A DNA stretch of 64,000 nt from Phoronis australis (GCA_002633005.1 NMRA01000122.1:467312-531311); one strand, 5' to 3'; shown: positions 20,401 through 59,865, numbered from the stretch's first letter. The notes: generated from the letters alone by a model not told the origin. Numbers and translations: made by a program.

Positions 20401-20680
20401 GAGGCCGTCGATGTCTTTAATACCTTCCAACTCCAACAAATACTCTTGTAAACTAACTTTTTCTTCGAGCAGCCCTTCGTTCAGTTGCCCAATTCGGCAA
20501 CAGGCCAATTTTTAACACTGAGCGCGCACTCCTGGCGGGCGCCGTCAAAACTGGAGCCCGCACAGTGTAAAAATGACCAGTTGCCGACCTGGGCAACTGG
20601 ATGAAGGACTGCTCGAAGAAAAAGTTTGTTTACAGGAGCATTTGTAAGAGTTGGAAGGAATTAAAGACATCGATGGCCTC
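20401..20680. mobile_element. Foldback (near-fully palindromic) MITE with GAG...CTC ends, MuDR/Sola-like
   Basis: ~125-bp arms, GAGGCCGTCGATGTCTTTAATACCTTCCAACTC... vs ...GAGTTGGAAGGAATTAAAGACATCGATGGCCTC. AGGGTC-containing degenerate direct repeat on both flanks. Confidence 0.9.
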
Positions 20681-22661: not shown

Positions 22662-24159
22662 CATGTCGTGAACACATCCACTAAAACAAGAAACTGTAGG
22701 AACACCACATTTATCCACCTTCACTCTTATCAGGCTTCTATTGTGAGTCAGCATGCGTGAATAATTGGCTGATAAGCCACCTCTGGAACTACTTTTGGCT
22801 GAATGGATGACCAGGCCATAAAATGATAATTAGCCAAGACCAGTTACTATAATGCAACAAAGAATAATGTCTTGCATCACCTAGCCTTGGTGGAAAGCTG
22901 TATACTGTATTGGCTCAAACAAACGCTTAGAAAAANNNNNNNNNNNNNNNNNNNNNNNNNNNNNNNNNNNNNNNNNNNNNNNNNNNNNNNNNNNNNNNNN
23001 NNNNNNNNNNNNNNNNNNNNNNNNNNNNNNNNNNNNNNNNNNNNNNNNNNNNNNNNNNNNNNNNNNNNNNNNNNNNNNNNNNNNNNNNNNNNNNNNNNNN
23101 NNNNNNNNNNNNNNNNNNNNNNNNNNNNNNNNNNNNNNNNNNNNNNNNNNNNNNNNNNNNNNNNNNNNNNNNNNNNNNNNNNNNNNNNNNNNNNNNNNNN
23201 NNNNNNNNNNNNNNNNNNNNNNNNNNNNNNNNNNNNNNNNNNNNNNNNNNNNNNNNNNNNNNNNNNNNNNNNNNNNNNNNNNNNNNNNNNNNNNNNNNNN
23301 NNNNNNNNNNNNNNNNNNNNNNNNNNNNNNNNNNNNNNNNNNNNNNNNNNNNNNNNNNNNNNNNNNNNNNNNNNNNNNNNNNNNNNNNNNNNNNNNNNNN
23401 NNNNNNNNNNNNNNNNNNNNNNNNNNNNNNNNNNNNNNNNNNNNNNNNNNNNNNNNNNNNNNNNNNNNNNNNNNNNNNNNNNNNNNNNNNNNNNNNNNNN
23501 NNNNNNNNNNNNNNNNNNNNNNNNNNNNNNNNNNNNNNNNNNNNNNNNNNNNNNNNNNNNNNNNNNNNNNNNNNNNNNNNNNNNNNNNNNNNNNNNNNNN
23601 NNNNNNNNNNNNNNNNNNNNNNNNNNNNNNNNNNNNNNNNNNNNNNNNNNNNNNNNNNNNNNNNNNNNNNNNNNNNNNNNNNNNNNNNNNNNNNNNNNNN
23701 NNNGTATTTTGAATATTGCAATGCATGTGTTCCAAAATCTAAATAACTTGGGTCCTATATTTTTGTATTAGTGCGCGCCGAATGAAAGTAATCGTGAGTG
23801 TTGCTGTGTTGCAAAATCTCTTATCCTGGGCCGATTTGAAAAATTCAAAGTTGTACTCATATTTGTTTTCGCTCCTCTTTTCAAATATTACAGTAAAAAC
23901 TATGTAAAACTCTCTCCATAAAAAGTACAGTCTGCTAGCTAGGTTGTAATCAGCTGATCATATCCGCATGAGCGAAGCCAATTATCCTGGCTCGTGACTC
24001 GATGACTAGAGCAGCTTGGCGGCATCCCTTTGATCGTGAGCCGAGTGCGACTCAGCCAAGGTGGATAAATACGGTCTACTTCAATTTTCCATACCCCGCC
24101 GTTTACCTTAACCACTGGGGTTAGGACCAATCTTATTTAGTGGGAATGTTCATAGCATG
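22662..24159. mobile_element. TIR element with CATG termini inserted in the minisatellite; interior includes the assembly gap
   Basis: CATGTCGTGAACACATCCACTAAAACAAG vs reverse complement of right end CATGCTATGAACATTCCCACTAAATAAG. Further mirrored ATTTATCCACCTT and ATAATTGGCT blocks. The flanks rejoin as minisatellite GAGACT.G|GGTGGATG. Confidence 0.7.
22936..23703. other. Assembly gap (768 N)
   Basis: Run of N; the three long X-filled ORFs are artefacts. Confidence 1.
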
Positions 24160-26854: not shown

Positions 26855-27198
26855 GAGTATCACTATTTTGAAAACTTAAGGAGGACTTCAGGTAATTTGT
26901 TGAGTCGAAACTATATTTTTACTCAAGAATTTAAGTTGACCTATCGGCGATCGCGAGGCAGTGACGCATCAGTCGGCGAGTTTGGGATTTTCTGAAAAAT
27001 GCTCGTAATTTAACAACAGTTTGATAGCAATGAACTGCAATTTTGTAGAAACTCTGTCATAGGTTACAGATGCATCACAGAGCGCAAATTTGGTGAATTC
27101 TTTCTTACAATTTCACCTGTTTCGGAGATCGGGTTTCAACCACTTCCTAAACTGAATTTTTCTAAGCGCCCTGGGTGCTTATTAGGGCGAATACGGTA
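26855..27198 (-). mobile_element. Truncated copy of the CCGTA-ended pogo-like element; shows the empty Kolobok target site
   Basis: Reverse complement aligns to 43591-43929 and continues (CCTCCTTAAGTTTTCAAAATAG) into 49013 onward. Terminus GGGTGCTTATTAGGGCGAATACGG|TA. Confidence 0.88.
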
Positions 27199-43109: not shown

Positions 43110-43418
43110 GACCTACCTTACCATGTAATGCTTTAGTTAGTCTGGACATATTAAGCACCACCTACCCTACTATGTAATGCATTTGTCTAGACATATTCAG
43201 CACCACCTACCCTACTATGTAATGCATCAGTCTAGACATTCAGGGTCACCTACCCTAACATGTAATGCATTAGTCTCGACATATTCAGTACTATCTATCC
43301 TACTAAGCAATGCATTAGTCTACACTAATCAGGGTCACCTACCCTACTATGTAATGCATTAGTCTAGACATATTCAGCACCACCTACCCTACTATGTAAT
43401 GCATTAGTCTAGACATAT
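43110..43418. repeat. 45-bp minisatellite, left part (~7 units)
   Basis: CATATTCAGCACCACCTACCCTACTATGTAATGCATTAGTCTAGA; resumes at 50116. Confidence 0.95.
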
Positions 43419-46400
43419 CAGGCATATATCCAGGTTTCAAAACCCTACTCGCCAGCTGGACGAGTGAGCCAGAAAATCTACTCGCTCAGCCCGAAATTCA
43501 GTCGCCTGGCCGTTTGCGTCTGTCACCACAAACTTGCTGCCAGGGTCAATAAAAACCGTTTCGTGCGTTGATGTCACCATCTATTAGGGCTACCGTATTC
43601 GCCCAGGGTGCTTAGAAAAATTCATTTCGGAAGAGGAGCGCTTGTTGTAGCCTAAGGTGGTTGAAACCCGGTCTCCGACAACGGGTGAAATCAAATTTAC
43701 GACCTGTGACGTATCGATAACCTATGACAGACTTTCTACAAAACTGTGGTGCATTGCCATCAAACTTTGTTGTTAAATTATGATCTTTTTTTAAAAAAAA
43801 CGTGCTGAAATCCCATGGCGAAAACTTGCCGACTGATGCGTTGCTGCCTTGCGATTGTCGATAGTGCAACTTGAATTCTTGAGTAAAGATACAGTTTTGA
43901 CTCAACAAATTAAAATGAATCCTCCTTAAAGGAGAATGCCACCCAAAATACAACGTATTTTGTATCAATTAAGATCGAGAAGTTCCACTCGATAAAAACA
44001 AGTACGGTTCTTTTACCTGTCAAAGTCGGCAGACGGAGGTGTTGAAATTAACCAATGACATCACAGGTTCGAACACAGTCTACTCAGCAGTTCACAACAC
44101 GTTTACCGGTGTCAGCTTATCGGTTGAATTCATCATTTTACACCAAAAAATCAACAAAATTCGATATAAAACCCTTACAAATACATCGAGTTATTGAACA
44201 AATGTGTTGTTTTATTTCGCTGTTATGGATTTATAGGTATTGGAATGTACCATAGCCTACTAAGTTCGGTAGGCCAATTTACCAAGGTCGGTCGCGGGAG
44301 TTTTGGGCGCTGTTCAGTTATAAATTCGAATTATTTGTCCGTGAAATACAGACAGGAGAACATAGCTGTGTTGCAATTTTAGACTTGCGATTTTTTTCAG
44401 CTCTAAACATACAAAAACGCTCATTATCCCGGCCAGTGGGTCGGAACCCGATCAGGCCCGTCACGGCCGGCCTGAAAAACATCACGAACATAAACCAGCC
44501 AAAGTTAGAAACTAAACTTCCACTCACGAAAAGACTATACTAGTGAGCCAAAGATATAATGTGCACGTGATTATTTTGGTGAATTAGACACTGCAAATCT
44601 ACTTACTAGCTTGTCGGGGGCCAGGAAGTCAGGTTACCCTTCCACAGCAAAACCGTCCTGGCAAAAGTTTCACAGTAAGAATGATTCGAATAATGTATGT
44701 GAATATCTAAATAAAGATTCCCCTAACATCTGACCATAGGATATACAATCAAGAATTAGCATGTGCTCACACGGCCAACACGTGGAGAATTTCTTGCTTA
44801 CACTGGTGACCCCTCAGATTCCCTAAGCCCCAGACAACTTTTAGGATGCCTATTCAGCACGCCCTTTGTATTGATGTAGATCTGAGCTAATGCAGTTGAA
44901 AGGTAATTGTTAGCATTACTGTCTCAACAATGGTTGTTGTTAGTACCCCCAATTTGGTTTTCTCTGACAATTACAGAGTTATAGCCTGTAACTCTGGAGA
45001 GTAGTTTTAACTTGGTACATTATAAATATTACAAAATGACTAAAAAGGTTAACTTGTGTTTATCTTCACAAGGGACCACTTCATCTTGGTTTTCTTTATT
45101 CAATTTTTAATGCTTCTGCCCACAGGGTTGATAATTTTTTATCTAAATTTTAAACTTGAAGTACCAAAACAGTGGTAGTTAAGTTCATTTTGAGCCCATC
45201 CCTAAACCTTACCACATTACACGTACAATCAACCTTTTACGTGTCATTAAAGTTTAATCTTTATTAGAACTCAAAGCATAAAATATATACAAAGTGCAAA
45301 TATGGTGATAACCAAACTGAAGATTTGAAATCCCTGGACAATTTCAGTTGCACTGACTATATAACTATTCTAGCTCTTCGTCAGCAATAAAAAATGAAAA
45401 GTGGGCACAACAACTGTTTCCTGGTCAAAAATCTGGTTAAACTAGATTGAAAGAATATTAAAAAATGAATTCGTGTGATATTGTTAACTCTGATGCACCG
45501 AGTATATCGATACGCGCAGTAGTTTATCTTCAATCGAACCCAATGGTTGTAGATTTAGATTCTTAGTTCATCGATTTCTAAAAAATGGAAAACTGTACTT
45601 GGTTGTTTTTTCCAGCTGAATACCGCCGTGGTGTTCGTTTACAATGAAAATTAGTGGTTAATGCATTTTGAAAATTCGGCATTATGTACAGTCAGAGATG
45701 TTTAATATAGTTTATGGTCGGATAATTACATTTAATTGGGTCTTGCTCGCATTGGGCAATGCGGTCATCACAATTGTACCTCATTCCAGCACCGCGCTCT
45801 CTTTGATCCAGTGGTACAAGCCGCTCAGGACGATCAGTGAAAATTCCCGCAAAAATCTTTAGAAATGATCGAACTCCTTGTAAGCGTATTATTCACGGTA
45901 TGAAGGTGCCTGGTCAATTTAGTTTATTGCATCTTTTTTCAGTTTTATATAAGCATTGCTTAGGGTGACAATAATTCATTTTGAAACATAGCGCACAATA
46001 ATAAACGTCAACTGTGACAACTCACAATCCCGACTTAGATGAGTGGTCATCCGACGAAGACTTCACAGGTCGATCGTTAGGTTTCACAAACCGGAATTCA
46101 CTGATCAAGAAATACAAGAGAGGCGCCGTGAATGTGCACAGACAACGGAACATACGAATAGTTCCGAAAACCGTTTGAAAGATTTGTCATGGTGTCAAAC
46201 TGTGTGCTAACTGCACGATAATAGAAACAACTGACGATTGCGTTTGCAGCCACGAAATTCCGAAAGTGAAACGCCTTCTTGGAGAAGCGTAGATGTGTCT
46301 CATGGACCATCCTGATTTTGCACCGCATCTAAAAGAAGTCTGCTTAGGGACTGGGAAAAAGAACTGACCAACACATCCTACACCCAGGGTCCAAACAGAA

Positions 46401-46891
46401 GCCTGATAAATAGAGTAAGTCATCAAACAGGTTATATAAAACGTTATGTTCTCATGCTTTGAATTAATTGTAATTGTTTATGTTTCCATTGCCAGCTACA
46501 ATTCTCCATAATCAAAAACTGATCAACAACCAATCCACGTTGTTTTGCCTCCTGCTTACCAAACCCAAACACACTAGGCACAACATCTGACTAATCATAT
46601 TCTAGTCTCTTTTCTGCCCTGGCATGAGCTGTTTGGTAAGCCGGCATTCGATCGTCATGGAAATCACTGTAAAGACTAGCTTACCCAAATTTCGACCATT
46701 GTGCACAATCACTGCTGAAAACCTCAAAAATGTGTACAATCTGAGCTCCAATGGTTACAATCACGAAAACCGAATGCAAGAGATAAATTCTTTCAAATTT
46801 GTACCAACACCACATGTTTTATTACACAGAAGAATCAACATCAAGTGGCCAAAGTTTTATTTTTGCAGCATGTACCAGTATAAGCAATTCT

Positions 46892-47545
46892 TTATGGCTT
46901 TGTCGACTTGTAATAGGCAGATTTCAATGACACGAGTTTTTGTTTTGGGTAGTTCCTCTGGTGTGCTTGTCCAGGTTGGGATTTCAGAACGAGAAGCGAG
47001 TCCAGCGTCTCGTTACCAAGTGACGCCCTTTGGTCAATTTTGTTCTTTCTAATGCAAGAAAAGACTCGTTCACAGGTTGCCTTGCCATGTGGAATCGTCA
47101 GGATTCTAAGCATAACATGTGAGAGATTCTTGAACCGAAAAATGTCTCCTGCATCTTTTATTTTGGCGATGTTCACCCACATTTGATCAATTGTTCCTGT
47201 GCAGTTAATATCCTGGCAACTCTGGTATTCAGCAAATTCCAGTTGAACAGTATCACTTGATACTCCTGAAACATGAAAAATAAATGCAGGACTACAATAG
47301 TTTTACTTGGAAAAGAATGCCATCACATTTTGAGACAGCAGAAACCTAAGTAACCTGGAGCTTATAACTACAAAGGCTTAACTACAATATGCCAGTCTTT
47401 TTAAAGATTAAAATCTTTAATTCTTAATTTTAAGTGGACAATTCTTTTAATTAAAGTGCACCCAAGTTTGTTAGAATATTCAAGACGAAACCAACCTTCT
47501 GGTAGCAAAGGCGGGTACTTCACCAGGAAATGAAAAAGTGAAAAG
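46892..47545 (-). pseudogene. 3' fragment of a spliced hAT transposase (C-terminal dimerisation domain); exons ~47545-47496 and 47265-46892
   Basis: SLFHFLVKYPPLLPE G|gttggt ... tttcag|VSSDTVQLEFAEYQ...IDQMWVNIAKIKDAGDIFRFKNLSHVMLRILTIPHGKATCERVFSCIRKNKIDQRASLGNETLDSLLVLK. The IPH...CERVFS...R.SL motif is typical of hATC. Confidence 0.9.
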
Positions 47546-47837
47546 GGCACCCATAGAAATTAAAAACCTCAAAATATACCCCACTAACATTGTGAAAAGG
47601 CATTTTTTGTCGATATCTGTCAAAAACGTGGGTAAGGAATGGAGCAGGAACATGCCTGACTATTGATTAGTGAAAATCATACCCATAGAATACCTAACTG
47701 CATGAAGATCATGCCCATAAAAGTACCTAAATTGACGAACACCCAACTCATAGAAATACCAAAAATCAGCAGAAACCCCACCCATGATGGGCAGCACATA
47801 TGTACCCACCAATATAATGAGTGCCCCACCCCCCTGG
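47546..47837. mobile_element. One end of an EnSpm/CACTA-like non-autonomous element
   Basis: Repeated subterminal CCCATAGAAAT(A)CC-like motifs and terminus GAGTGCCCCACCCCCCTGG; the other end was not found. Confidence 0.45.
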
Positions 47838-49305
47838 TCGGCAGTACCCTGGAAGTTGCCTATCGTCTAAGCTGTGCATTCAAAGCCACCCTGTCGCCCG
47901 TGCACTGTGCTAAAACGATCCTGAAAACGTTCGACCTTGTCTTGATGCAAAATAATATCATATGAACCAAAGAAAGTATGACACTATCAACATTTGAACT
48001 GTTGGACTACTACACTAAAGTTTTGCAAAACAAACTGAAAATATACACTCAAATCCACGCTGTCGTTGTCGAAGGCATAACCAGACGCTTCCGCTGAGAA
48101 AATCAGGCCCGACTAATTATTACACTAATAGCACCAATAAAAGAGCGAGTTTATTTCATCCCAAAAGTGGGAGAAACACATAAACAAAAGACATAGGTCG
48201 GAATTATGACAAACTGTTTTTATAATTGCCGATCATTTACTCGCAGTATAATTTGACAAAGTTACTATTAATATCAATAAGCCAGTTCTACATGCGTACG
48301 GTATCCTAGTGGACAAGCTGTGAACTAGGTCGGCACGAAATCGCCGATGTGGATTCATATCTACCCAGGATTTCCCGTGAAAATTTTCAACAGTGTGTTG
48401 GCGGGACCCCGGCCGATCGGACACGTTATGTGCCGCAAAAACATATATGATGCGCCCCTGCAAAAATAGGGATAAACAGTGAAATAATATACGAAGAAAA
48501 CGAACTTGTGGATAATAATATTTTATTAACAATGAACTTGACACTCACTCGTGAATTGCGTACCATTACAAAGTGGTTTCGTATAGCGTAGGATCGCATA
48601 AAAAATCATACGATTATACGCCTGTTTTGTACAAGTAAACACTGGTATGACTAGATAAAATGCCAGCCACAGACACGGAGAAGTTTCGTGGCCTCATACT
48701 TAATTGGTATTACAGTGTACTTTTCATTCTTCACTACCACAAAACACTTCCGAAGCATTATATGCTCTCGAGGAAATCAAAAAAAAACAATATACCTGCT
48801 TTCCTCGTAGCTTCATAGTTCGCACAAGCGGGAACGATACACCACCCCATAGTGGCACTCACTCTGAAGAAGAACCACTGATGTCGCTGATTTCTCACCT
48901 TCCTCATAGGTTAACGTGACACCTCTCGGTGAGGTGAGATCGGCCGTATATGAGGTGATGTGGATATAGACCGATAAAGACGGTAAAAAAGACAGGTGGC
49001 ATTCTCCTTTAAGTTTTCCAAATAGCGTACTTAAAATTTTTAAGTTCCTGTGGAGTCGGGATTAACCGCAGTTCAAATCTGGGCAAGATCGCACACCGCA
49101 ACAAGCAAAAAATCTGGAAGAAAACACATGTTGTTGTCATGTGACGTTTGTTTTGAAGTTTGTCTGCAGGTGTGCGCCGAGTGAGCGAGCGTGTGCGTGT
49201 CATCAGAGTTCATGTGCCAGAGTCGGTAGCAGGCCCACATACTAACGTATAAGCGGGCCCTAGCGCGCCCTTCTTGGCCACGTGCTCATTAAAACTGGTC
49301 AAGTT

Positions 49306-49611
49306 TCGATTCGCGGTTTTTACGGTTTTTACGTGTACAAAAGTAATCTGCATTCCTGTTGAGGGAGAAGAGCTGTACAGGAAAGATAACAATACAATTC
49401 CGTTGACAAATACACTGCTTCTGTTCTGAAAGACCTGGCCATAGTGGGACATGTTCCTCGCAAGATCAGCAGAACTTTTGCGTTCTTTTTGAAGTGTACA
49501 GCCACAGCTAAACACCGACATAGCGGCGAGGCTCGTGGGTCTAGAAATTCCGCACACAATGATTTTTCAGGACTGTCGGATATTATTGATAAATTGAAGA
49601 CATTACTGTAG
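49306..49611 (+). pseudogene. Stand-alone HIRAN-like domain ORF, frameshifted
   Basis: SIRGFY(GFY)VYK / VICIPVEGEELYRKDNN / NSVDKYTASVLKDLAIVGHVPRKISRTFAFFLKCTATAKHRHSGEARG / GLEIPHTMIF / SGLSDIIDKLKTLL*. Fits the HIRAN pattern RG.H.Y...GE.L...N..D..A..V....VG.VP. Confidence 0.8.
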
Positions 49612-50115
49612 AATTTTAGAACTGTAGGTAAAGCATCTTTCGCATATGTTCATCAGGACTGGACTCTATTTTAGCGAAGTCTGAAAATGAGATAGGGGCA
49701 CGGGTGCTTATCAGTCCAAGAATAATGGTATTTCACTTGCTGCAAGCAAACGGACTGGTCTTCCACCTTTCCTCCCTTTTCTTTGTTTCGGACTAGTCCA
49801 CTAATTCCTTTGTGCATGACCACACACTGTGTTCTTTTGTCTAGACGAATCGCGTAACGGGCGACATATACTGAATCGGTAGGATCGCACTGCACTGATC
49901 TTTTTTACTGCCGGAGCATCAACATGCTGACTAAACTGAACCTTAAAATTCAGCACAAGGAGGAGAATATTTATTCATGTTCATCTGTGAAACGATAGTG
50001 TTTTTGTGCTCTGAAAATTCCCTCACCACCTGTGCGAACGGCAAGTGAACTTCTACTCGTCCAGCGCCATTTTTACTCGCATTGGCGACTGGGCGAGTGG
50101 CGAAGTATATCCCTG

Positions 50116-50640
50116 CATATTTAGCACCAGCTACACTACTATGTAATGCATTAGTCTAGACATATTCAGCACCTACTATCCTACTATGTAATGCATTAGT
50201 CTAGGCATTCAGGGTCTGACCTACCCTACTATGTAATGCAGTAGTCTAGACATATTCAGGATCACCTACCTACTACGTAATGCATTAGTCTGGACATATT
50301 CAGCACCACCTACCCTACTATGTAATGCATTAGTCTAGACACATTCAGGGTCACCTACCCTACTATGTAATGCATTAGTCTAGACATATTCAGGGTCACC
50401 TACCCTACCCTGTAATGCATTAGTCTAGACATATTCAGGGTCACCTACCCTACTAACAATAATGCATTAGTCTAGACATATTCAGCTCACCTACCCTACC
50501 CTGTAATGCATTAGTCTGGACACATTCAGCGTCACCTACCCTACCTAGTAAAGCATTACTCTGGACATATTTAGGGTTCCAATTACCCAACCATGTAATG
50601 CATTAGTCTAGACATATTCAGCACCACCTACCCTACCGTA
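50116..50640. repeat. 45-bp minisatellite, right part (~11-12 units)
   Basis: Same unit as 43110-43418, with CACC and GGTC variants. Confidence 0.97.
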
Positions 50641-51654
50641 TAATGGGCTTGCAATATACAGGGTTCCCTTCTCTACCCATAAGTTAAGTAGAAGAGATTG
50701 AAATACTGACCCTGACTAACAATTCAAAGTCTGGGTACACCAAACTGCATTACGCCAAGTTCCAGGTTTTGCATATCCTGAGAGCAGACCTTTATCTAAC
50801 AGACTCTAATATTTAAATACCACGGCTAAGACGCCCTGTTTAGCATTTAGACAACTTAGTAAGTAAACAGGTAAGCATTATTGTCTCTTTAAACATGCTC
50901 GACTCAGCTCTGGTAAATAATAATATAAAGTTAAGACATGATATGCTACCGTAGATACGATATACTTCATTGCAGACCCATGTACAGTAATAAACTACAC
51001 CACTATGGGCAATTTGATGCAGTCACAGGTCACGACACTTTGGGAAATTGGGAAACCCATTTTAGACTGTCTTGCTATTTTTGAAATGGTGGATGGACCC
51101 CTCTGAGAGTGATCACGTTAATAAAACAGACCTACAGCCAAGGTATTCACTGCTCTCCCGATTAAATAAAAATCTTGTCCAACGTGAAGATAAGAAGACT
51201 CCATGTGATCAATGAAACCCTCACGCCAACATCATGGAAAGATGCACTGACCAGAGACAGTCACTAAGGCAAGCAGAGCACCAGGACTTGATTAGAGACA
51301 TCATATCTGTTTAATAGGCCAGTTAGTTTACAAATTTAGCAAGTACAGTAAATAAACAGTAACCCAGAGATAAGAATCTCATGTACTAGATCAAACGGAA
51401 GACAGGAAATGCCATGGTTTGCCTGACCAGAGAGTACAAATAACCTTCTTGTAATAACTGTTTCTCAATTTATCCAAAGCTAGCGCATAAACCACAACCT
51501 CAAAAGGAAACCATAGAAGGCAGAGCCAGAATCAAAATAGACCACTGAAGATTTGAACATAGTTGGGAAATTGAAGTCAGACATTTGAAAACTTAGAATA
51601 CTGATAAGAAAACAAACTTGATATAAGAAATCATAAAAGATTAGTCATTAACAC

Positions 51655-51786
51655 GTAGAAAATTAAATCAATTACAGGACTTACGATTGAGTTGGCTACA
51701 TTGCATCCTCCTCTCGATGACTTCAGCAGGCCTCCTCGAGAGGACGCAACGTAGCCAAAAGTTCAGTAATTGATTTAATTTTCTAC
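51655..51786. repeat. Palindromic element resembling paired, degenerate Penelope-type minimal hammerhead motifs
   Basis: Perfect 21-bp IR GTAGAAAATTAAATCAATTAC/GTAATTGATTTAATTTTCTAC. Inner IR TTGGCTACATTGCATCCTC/GAGGACGCAACGTAGCCAA. The inverted repeats are certain; the hammerhead origin is inferred. Confidence 0.65.
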
Positions 51787-53785
51787 ATATTATTACTCAA
51801 CTGGATGACTGAAAGTATTCATAGCATTATTATATCCAACTATGGACACGACGTCCTAAGATCTGTTCGTCATTTTATTAGTCATTAGCATTGATTGAGA
51901 TTTTCAAAGACAAAGTACCGTATCTCTTTATATTTAAATGGGGGCTCCATTTGCCAATCTAACACTACAAACTTCCTAAGTCAGAATTGTTCATAAAAAA
52001 ATCAGAAAGGCTCAATCATAATACCCTGCCTCAAGAGGCCAACCTGTGTGCCGAATATTGGGGATGAAAGGGGTAAATTGGTCATTACCCAGCACACGAG
52101 ACAACCGAAATTTTCCGTCAAAAAAACAAAAAAACATGCTATCTTAACGATGTTGGAAAACATTTGCCTGATTTTCACTTCAGATATTTCATTTTTTTCA
52201 TTTTCGGCTCTTGCTAAGAATTTTGCCAGGATCCATTTAGCCAGTTCATGTTACGCTAAGCCGCAAGCCCTGCACACACAAGTTTAGGGATGTTGCATTA
52301 ATCAAACTACTAGCATGTATTTAAAGGGCACATGGGAGTCAAGTACTATTATTAGATTACATTCATTCGCTTACACCCATTTTTTAAATTTAATCAACGG
52401 AGATGCACCAGTAATCAGTGTGTGGATGAAGTTACTTGCAATATCTTGACTGACTGCTCTTCCAAACAGTAGGATATAATGAGGATAGTGACTTATGAGT
52501 TGGAAACAACAACCAGTGAATACTTACGCAATCCCTACAATTAATGTAACAAAGTCACCAGATCACTGCGCTAGATCCCTAATTATGTACAGCATGAGTC
52601 ATTGTGTGCTAATGGAGCAGATCAACTCTAACAAGTGTTCCTGAAACACCAGTGTACAAGAACAGTCAAGTGTCCCACAAATTGTGGTGAAGACACCACA
52701 AAGAAATAACAAGAGGGTGATAGTAATATCAGGAATGGAACAGATCAGTTGGGAGACAAGTGACAGCCTGGACAGTTTGCTCAACAGTGGTCAGCCACAA
52801 CCCTCTGGTCACTGACATAACTCACTTACTCACTACTGCAAAGGAAACAGTGGTGTACTTTCCCTGGGCCAAATACACAAGTTTCATGTCAACTCTCAAC
52901 TAGGATACTGGGTTACTCCCTACATGCCAGGTGGCGCTAGAGAGACAATAGGCAACCACAACATGCAACCAGGTGTGCTTTCTATATACCGGAGAACCTC
53001 GCAAAAACACAAACTCACTCACACAAGACTTCGCGAAATATTGCCAGGCATTACAAGAGAACCACGTGATAACACTAGCTTCTTTTGCGAAATTCTTGCA
53101 TCTACGAAAATCAACCCTGAGGTAGCCACGTGAGACACTTGTCATCCAAAAACCCCCTACTCATGGATTGCTGTCCGTTTTCAATGAATTTGATTCATAA
53201 AACTACAGACCTTTATTCATTAGCACCACCTAGTGAACATCAAGTCAAACATTACTTCATACCAAAAACATTGTACCTGAATCTACCTTTAATTATACTT
53301 CCTGGTAAAAGGAATTCCTTCAGCCTCATTTTCATACGTTAACTTCAAGAACATCTGTCATTTTGAAGCCAACAAAGTTTTGGTTTTGTGTGGGTTACAA
53401 AACATACAAAGCGTTATCACCATGTAGCAAGTACTTTGAAGTCAGGGTTAATTTCTCCTTCCTCCTAATGAAAAATACGTTGTAAACGTTCTTGTTACAC
53501 TCTGAGGAAAATCCTCAGGTGTGGGAAAATGTCTTGCACCTTTACAAGCTTGTCCTCCAGAGTCTCATCTGTAACAGGGCAGTTTAAAGGTGAAGCAGAA
53601 AGGATTTCTAGAATGCAAAGCATGGTTAAACACTTCTTCAGTATATCCCGTCGTGAAATGAGTACGGTCGTACCGCAAACAAGAGTAGTTTACTACCCTA
53701 CAGACGAGCAGAATACTCATACACCAGAAAAGACCATCTCTCAATCCTTAATTTACCAAGTACATCACTTTTAACTTCAACAGAA

Positions 53786-59549: not shown

Positions 59550-59865
59550 TCAAAAAAGCAAGATTTCGAGCACGCGCGATACAGTGAACAAGATGGCACA
59601 CACGCAGTGCAAGCTGTTTGCGTCGGAGACTTGAACGGAATTCAGTGTAACAGATCAGATCATTAAATATTTGTTTACTCAACAAAAATCATGAGGGTGT
59701 CGATCGTGGGTACACTGATGCTACTCAACTTGCTTAACGCTTGTGTTTAGCATATACACTTACCAAATTTCCAAATTTTCACTTTCAAACACTTATGCTT
59801 GGCTATACACCCAACCTGATAATTGAGATCAAACACCCTGGGCCTTAATGCGAATAAATACGGTA
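59550..59865. mobile_element. Fragment ending in a CCGTA-type pogo-like terminus
   Basis: CACCCTGGGCCTTAATGCGAATAAATACGG|TA; left boundary approximate. Confidence 0.45.

Follow-up and report, generated by a model that had tools for sequence, protein, structure and literature searches.

A decayed repeat with Passer-type ends in Phoronis australis carries a pseudogene of a solo HIRAN-domain protein and likely descends from a two-gene pogo element

Animal pogo and Tc1/mariner elements are usually seen as one-gene systems that leave the repair of DNA breaks to the host. Within the pogo superfamily, the Passer (PS) family has a DD35D transposase, and its terminal inverted repeats (TIRs) start with CCGTA and are flanked by TA, as tabulated in supplements of PMC9976928 and PMC7386202. 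The HIRAN domain is known from the HLTF and Rad5 proteins and from stand-alone bacterial and phage forms; the HLTF domain has a cavity that accommodates one single-stranded dinucleotide, and recognition of 3' ends has been reported for it (PMC4666394). Here we analyze a 64,000-nucleotide window of the P. australis genome (GCA_002633005.1, NMRA01000122.1:467312-531311; positions are counted from its first base), which holds a TA-flanked repeat at 43593-49728 with the remnant of a gene. An earlier note on this DNA had proposed that a transposon family mobilizes a solo HIRAN protein as an accessory, a view that stands at the level of the family, while the window copy itself proves to be a pseudogene in an element lacking a transposase, and the suggested role at transposon ends or forks remains an inference. 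Taken as a whole, we consider it reasonably probable that the repeat is a dead element with Passer-type ends and a frameshifted solo HIRAN gene, that it derives from a two-gene pogo element, and that the HIRAN protein would bind the free 3' ends produced by cut-and-paste transposition.

Frameshift-aware alignment of the remnant with P0002, an intact protein of 113 amino acids (the intact solo relatives are about this length), gave 51 identical residues among 99 aligned (52%) over 49300-49608, followed by a stop codon at 49609-49611; the score was 154, whereas none of 30 shuffles exceeded 33. The coding region is interrupted by four frameshifts (near 49325-49349, 49396, 49538, and 49561) and has lost about 7 codons in frame, and a start codon was not identified. 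The motifs that had been quoted for a frameshifted open reading frame (ORF) at 49306-49611 are all there, spread over two frames of the remnant at 49300-49611. The window frame terminates at LKTLL and those of P0002-P0004 at LKSLL, so that the stop of the remnant corresponds to the C-terminus of the solo relatives. A tblastn search with P0001 matched the window at 49324-49608 (E 1e-17), with nothing else in it below E 0.1.

The identity of the domain was established via intact relatives, because the window fragments alone yield no Pfam match. The same holds for the fragments of L001, a copy in the same-species assembly B1 that has a longer open HIRAN stretch; for both sets of fragments there was nothing significant in PHROGs or PDB, no match in the Atlas, and no word-index homologues or metagenome loci. 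A phmmer search with the longer open stretch of L001 against 1.84 billion representatives returned P0001 as the sole match (E 4e-4), and a search with P0001 yielded six more relatives. Scores against the Pfam HIRAN profile (PF08797, cut-off 24.7 bits) are 31.5 for P0001, 34.7 for P0002, and 37.0 for P0003, all passing, and P0001 is located among HIRAN clusters in the Atlas. The structure model, made of P0002 and not of the window copy (pLDDT 90), resembles HLTF HIRAN (Foldseek TM 0.74; for 4xzg_A, Z 13.2 and rmsd 2.1 over 105 residues) at a sequence identity of about 20%; it also matches the bacterial stand-alone protein lp_0118 (Z 11.9) and Rad5 (Z 9.2), and the next unrelated row has Z 4.9. 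The profile scores of these relatives and the predicted structure of P0002 confirm the assignment of the remnant to the HIRAN type, as the earlier note had guessed. The equivalents of HLTF residues N91, D94, H110, and K113 vary little or not at all among 17 sequences (numbering by eye), and the N, D, H, and K/R pocket positions are likewise present in the window copy (register by eye).

With an alignment of the closest proteins, 25 of 89 pattern matches from metagenome contigs proved to be HIRAN loci, representing 13 DNA clusters; their identity to P0002 is 29-60%, and they are separate from the family of the window element. An exact TACCGTA is found 147-253 bp upstream, on the same strand, in 11 of the 25 loci and 7 of the 13 clusters, compared with 74 of 2,937 background windows (2.5%). 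At one locus, L002, the element is complete: it spans 2,841 bp, has perfect ends of 26 bp, and holds a 351-codon HIRAN-Ulp1-like frame that faces a convergent 479-codon DDE_1 frame with the 35-residue spacing of DD35D. The same layout is seen in broken form in L007 and L011 and weakly in L006. Autonomous partners encoding a transposase and HIRAN, which the note had raised as a question, therefore do occur as DD35D pogo elements in other genomes, with the difference that HIRAN is fused there to an Ulp1-like domain and is not solo. Two-ended elements with HIRAN only (L005, 750 bp; L010, 681 bp; L027, 494 bp) have the design of the window element. Among prokaryote genomes only L027 was a relative (1 of 36 pattern matches), and none of 100 pattern matches in viral contigs was one. 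The HIRAN-remnant element of L027 (3806-4299) lies in AT-rich, eukaryote-like DNA of an archaeal bin, probably as host contamination.

Comparison of seven HIRAN frames gave a pN lower than pS for all 21 pairs, and for L002 and L007 the estimates are dN 0.17 and dS 1.5 (dN/dS about 0.11). The recurrence of HIRAN inside CCGTA-ended elements, either with a convergent DD35D transposase or alone, shows that some Passer-like pogo elements have it as a conserved accessory gene. Passive capture of a host gene fragment in the manner of Pack-type elements, with no role for the element, would fit the fact that the window copy and many of its relatives are pseudogenes in non-autonomous elements. We consider such capture very improbable, as the position and orientation of the gene recur in at least seven clusters unrelated in DNA, the protein is conserved despite saturated silent sites (purifying selection between families is indicated), and its identity to HLTF is only about 20%.

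The Ulp1-like fusion (L002, L003, L007, L011, and P0016) raises another possibility, namely that HIRAN is directed at the host: it would serve as an HLTF/Rad5 decoy or deliver a SUMO protease to chromatin and so relieve silencing, the solo protein being a reduced form. Ulp1 domains are indeed known from Ginger1 and Mutator elements (PMC2836005). Nevertheless, the window protein and P0002-P0004 stop at a common LK.LL with no protease, and only one of five scanned candidates exceeded the Pfam C48 cut-off, so an anti-host function appears quite unlikely. By eye, the Ulp1/C48-like domain fused to HIRAN in L002 (479-1531), L003 (439-1461), and P0016 seems to have kept its catalytic His, Asp, Gln, and Cys motifs intact.

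The element of the window lies in a nest of insertions, with the following features.

43419..50115, unstranded: outer element bounded by CAGG...CCTG, apparently with a 5-bp duplication of CATAT (sequence)
43591..43592, unstranded: left TA target-site duplication (sequence)
43593..43929, plus strand: left arm, with a CCGTA-type TIR missing 12 bp relative to the copy at 27198, its final bases being the TTAA target of the insert (sequence comparison)
43930..49008, unstranded: Kolobok-type insertion, separate from the pogo element (14-bp TIR, AG...CT termini, TTAA duplication)
46892..47299, minus strand: C-terminal fragment of a hAT transposase, nested in the Kolobok-type insert (PF05699, E 2e-7)
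49013..49728, plus strand: right arm, consisting of a non-coding middle, the HIRAN remnant, and the right TIR (copies in B1)
49300..49611, plus strand: pseudogene of a solo HIRAN-domain protein (tblastn, frameshift-aware alignment)
49702..49728, minus strand: degenerate Passer-type right TIR (match to the intact TIR and to published Passer TIR tables)
49729..49730, unstranded: right TA target-site duplication (sequence)
26863..27198, minus strand: second, truncated left arm of a related subfamily, with an intact TIR at 27196-27170 (75% identity)

The ends claimed for the element are in place: the left one reads GGGC TA/CCGTA (43591-43597) and the right one AATGG/TA (49724-49730), so that TA is duplicated on both sides. 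The two TIRs of the window copy agree with each other at chance level (p about 0.5, 300 shuffles) because 12 bp are missing from the left TIR; compared with the copy at 27198, whose left TIR is intact, the right TIR does find a match, one that 0 of 300 shuffles equaled. With an exact CCGTA on the left and a degenerate version on the right, both agree with the published Passer TIR pattern. The right TIR, moreover, follows the ORF, and the alternative that it precedes the ORF and leaves the gene in a separate insertion is thereby excluded. The window copy is a dead, transposase-less, TA-flanked repeat with decayed Passer-type ends. It most likely arose by deletion from a two-gene pogo element, and its family was, we infer, mobilized in trans by a Passer-like transposase.

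Without the Kolobok-type insert the pogo-type element measures 1,053 bp (1,058 bp with the flanking bases counted in), in line with the earlier estimate of about 1.06 kb. The insert itself is 5,079 bp long, with a perfect 14-bp TIR and AG...CT termini, and is bracketed by duplicated TTAA at 43926-43929 and 49009-49012; it fits the Kolobok definition, a TTAA target-site duplication (TSD) and RR...YY termini, as given in PMC9587614. In the left arm at 27198-26863 a single empty TTAA leads straight into the first bases of the right arm, and each of the three DNA runs has contigs with Kolobok-free joints (43912 to 49009/49011), which are also seen in RNA reads. The splice of 43930-49012 proposed before is therefore genuine. 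Inside the insert, a Cys-rich fragment at 46179-46330 (46179-46289 for the likeness to KolX) looks like KolX or the P2X7 ballast by eye, a Pfam search of it being blank, and a stretch of low read depth, spanned by joints, lies nested at about 46650-48660 and includes the hAT dimerization fragment.

The pogo-type element sits within the outer CAGG...CCTG element, which amounts to about 560 bp after subtraction of its inserts and interrupts a 45-bp minisatellite (43111-43418 and 50116-50636). Its apparent 5-bp TSD is reminiscent of hAT5-type elements. Elsewhere in the window there is a further TA/CCGTA-type end on the minus strand (59836-59865), which resembles the TIR at 27198 and for which no partner end was found. 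Two fold-back (inverted-repeat) elements of the size of miniature inverted-repeat transposable elements occupy 20401-20680 and 51649-51792, and an assembly gap (a run of N) at about 22930-23710 falls between two blocks of a 29-30-bp tandem repeat.

The right arm is repeated in the species, with at least 12 matches of 86-91% over query positions 1-679 on eight contigs of B1; there was no real match in three other genomes (one listed, two aligned without a match). That other copies carry the HIRAN remnant, as the note had required, is seen both from these matches and from read variants. Among the variants, a one-base loss at 49537/49539 and a gain of T at 49562 coincide with the last two frameshifts and reopen the frame. 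A set of 40 of the 158 variants includes 12 substitutions that fall within the remnant; W20, P37, K61, and Y82 are restored by four of these, and another four are silent. Together these variants point to a once-intact master gene, an intact copy not being shown thereby. RNA reads cover the element on both strands and are mostly less than 95% alike, and therefore stem from other copies and not from a HIRAN mRNA. Over 49105-49228 the read depth far exceeds that of the neighbors (up to about 96,000), this segment being common to a more abundant repeat family.

Several observations weigh against the reading given above. P0001-P0004, the closest proteins, come without genomic context, the tree gives no supported placement for the window row, and the stacking tyrosines of HLTF, Y72 and Y93, are not conserved in the family (by eye). 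Tblastn with P0033 detected no trace of a transposase in the window (no match at E 0.1), and no autonomous partner of the element's own family was found; given the missing transposase, the window copy is filed as non-autonomous with Passer-type ends and not as a proven Passer member. In other genomes, an exact end upstream is missing from 14 of the 25 loci, several of which do have a decayed end or one lying downstream: the upstream end has one mismatch in L020 and L024 and is decayed in L019, and a Passer-like end lies downstream in L021 and L026. Silent sites are saturated (dS) in 15 of the 21 pairs of HIRAN frames. Finally, L001, the one B1 copy whose flanks were analyzed, agrees with the window copy in its Kolobok end, in the flank on the right, and in the third and fourth frameshifts, and is therefore no independent insertion; it may be an allele of the window copy or part of a larger duplicated unit. 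The two differ by dN 0.01 and dS 0.10 over 43 codons, too few changes to use. Read depth, too, is much alike in the outer flank and in the 5' part of the remnant (about 500-2,000 in the latter).

Both the shared neighbors of L001 and this similarity in depth would be expected if the copies of the remnant in this genome arose chiefly because the outer CAGG element, or some larger duplication, carried it along, and if the pogo ends were relics of a single old insertion. Yet Kolobok-free joints occur in the contigs of every DNA run and in RNA reads, the related left arm at 27198 borders a different flank than the element at 43593, and the association of HIRAN with CCGTA ends across genomes is left untouched by such a history, which we regard as highly improbable.

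When elements of the Tc1/mariner type are excised, both the element and the donor flanks are left with 3' overhangs of 2-3 nt, and pogo overhangs are assumed to be alike. The cavity of HLTF HIRAN with its 3'-end recognition, considered together with these overhangs, leads us to favor end capping. It is quite possible, if short of probable, that the HIRAN protein caps the short 3' overhangs left by ITm transposases on the excised element and the donor break. Such capping might protect the ends or direct the donor break to templated repair that restores the element, and in the fused forms HIRAN would carry the Ulp1-like protease to the same DNA ends. A broader and rather doubtful proposal is that a widespread, undescribed two-gene pogo/Passer class encodes a HIRAN protein, solo or joined to a SUMO-type protease, that binds 3' ends; by capping donor overhangs so that repair copies the element back, the protein would make cut-and-paste transposition replicative, and helper-only elements would be kept for its supply in trans.

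Alternatively, HIRAN could target or time transposition at replication forks, without handling the breaks of the transposon itself, and targeting to forks has a precedent in TnsE of Tn7. Retention of the HIRAN fold and pocket agrees with this, as does the preference of HLTF HIRAN for fork-like junctions over single-stranded DNA described in PMC4666394. However, nothing visible in the solo protein would tether it to the transposase, and the two-ended elements still follow the TA target rule, so that fork targeting seems unlikely, and capping of the transposon's own ends is preferred. Should the accessory role be true, some lineages of these elements would manage their own ends or forks by means of a conserved end-binding gene, and many genes annotated as solo 'HIRAN domain' in assemblies of marine invertebrates would belong to transposons. 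It would also open a route to testing whether cut-and-paste elements bias the repair of the donor site, and might improve Passer-type vectors. For experiments L002 is a better object than the dead window copy, which is of value as one more example of the group.

Full-text literature searches, whose scope lay outside Repbase Reports, Iyer et al. 2006, and preprint supplements, returned no paper that connects HIRAN with pogo or mariner elements. The available portions of Gao et al. 2020 (PMC7386202) with its eight supplements, of Wang et al. 2023 (PMC9976928) with its supplement, and of Dupeyron 2020, Bao 2010, and the Kolobok paper PMC9587614 do not name HIRAN, and the accessible text of two further papers mentions it solely for Rad5 and phages. 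The pairing of pogo elements with an accessory HIRAN gene is thus new in the sense that we found no published description of it.

Comparison with the closest known systems places the element as follows. It shares with Passer (PMC7386202, PMC9976928) the TA TSD, the short CCGTA TIRs, and an ...ATAAG.C.C core, and the L002 transposase is likewise of the DDE_1 type with 35-residue spacing, a likeness drawn from spacing and ends and not from a tree. Published intact Passer elements consist of one ORF, whereas the window copy has no transposase and a HIRAN remnant instead. Relative to the HIRAN proteins of PF08797, the family keeps the fold and the N, D, H, and K/R pocket positions; it differs from HLTF and Rad5 in having no SWI/SNF or RING partner, and from HLTF in an identity of only about 20%, a His at the position of R71, and the loss of the stacking Y72/Y93 (by eye). 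Unlike the HLTF/Rad5 and the bacterial and phage forms, the relatives described here lie within eukaryotic transposon ends. Finally, Ginger1 and Mutator (Ulp1/OTU, PMC2836005) and Kolobok (KolX and nucleases, PMC9587614) are also cut-and-paste elements with a conserved second protein or domain, and the fused HIRAN relatives resemble the first two in bearing an Ulp1-like domain. All three belong to other superfamilies, and in neither of these texts, so far as available, is HIRAN named.

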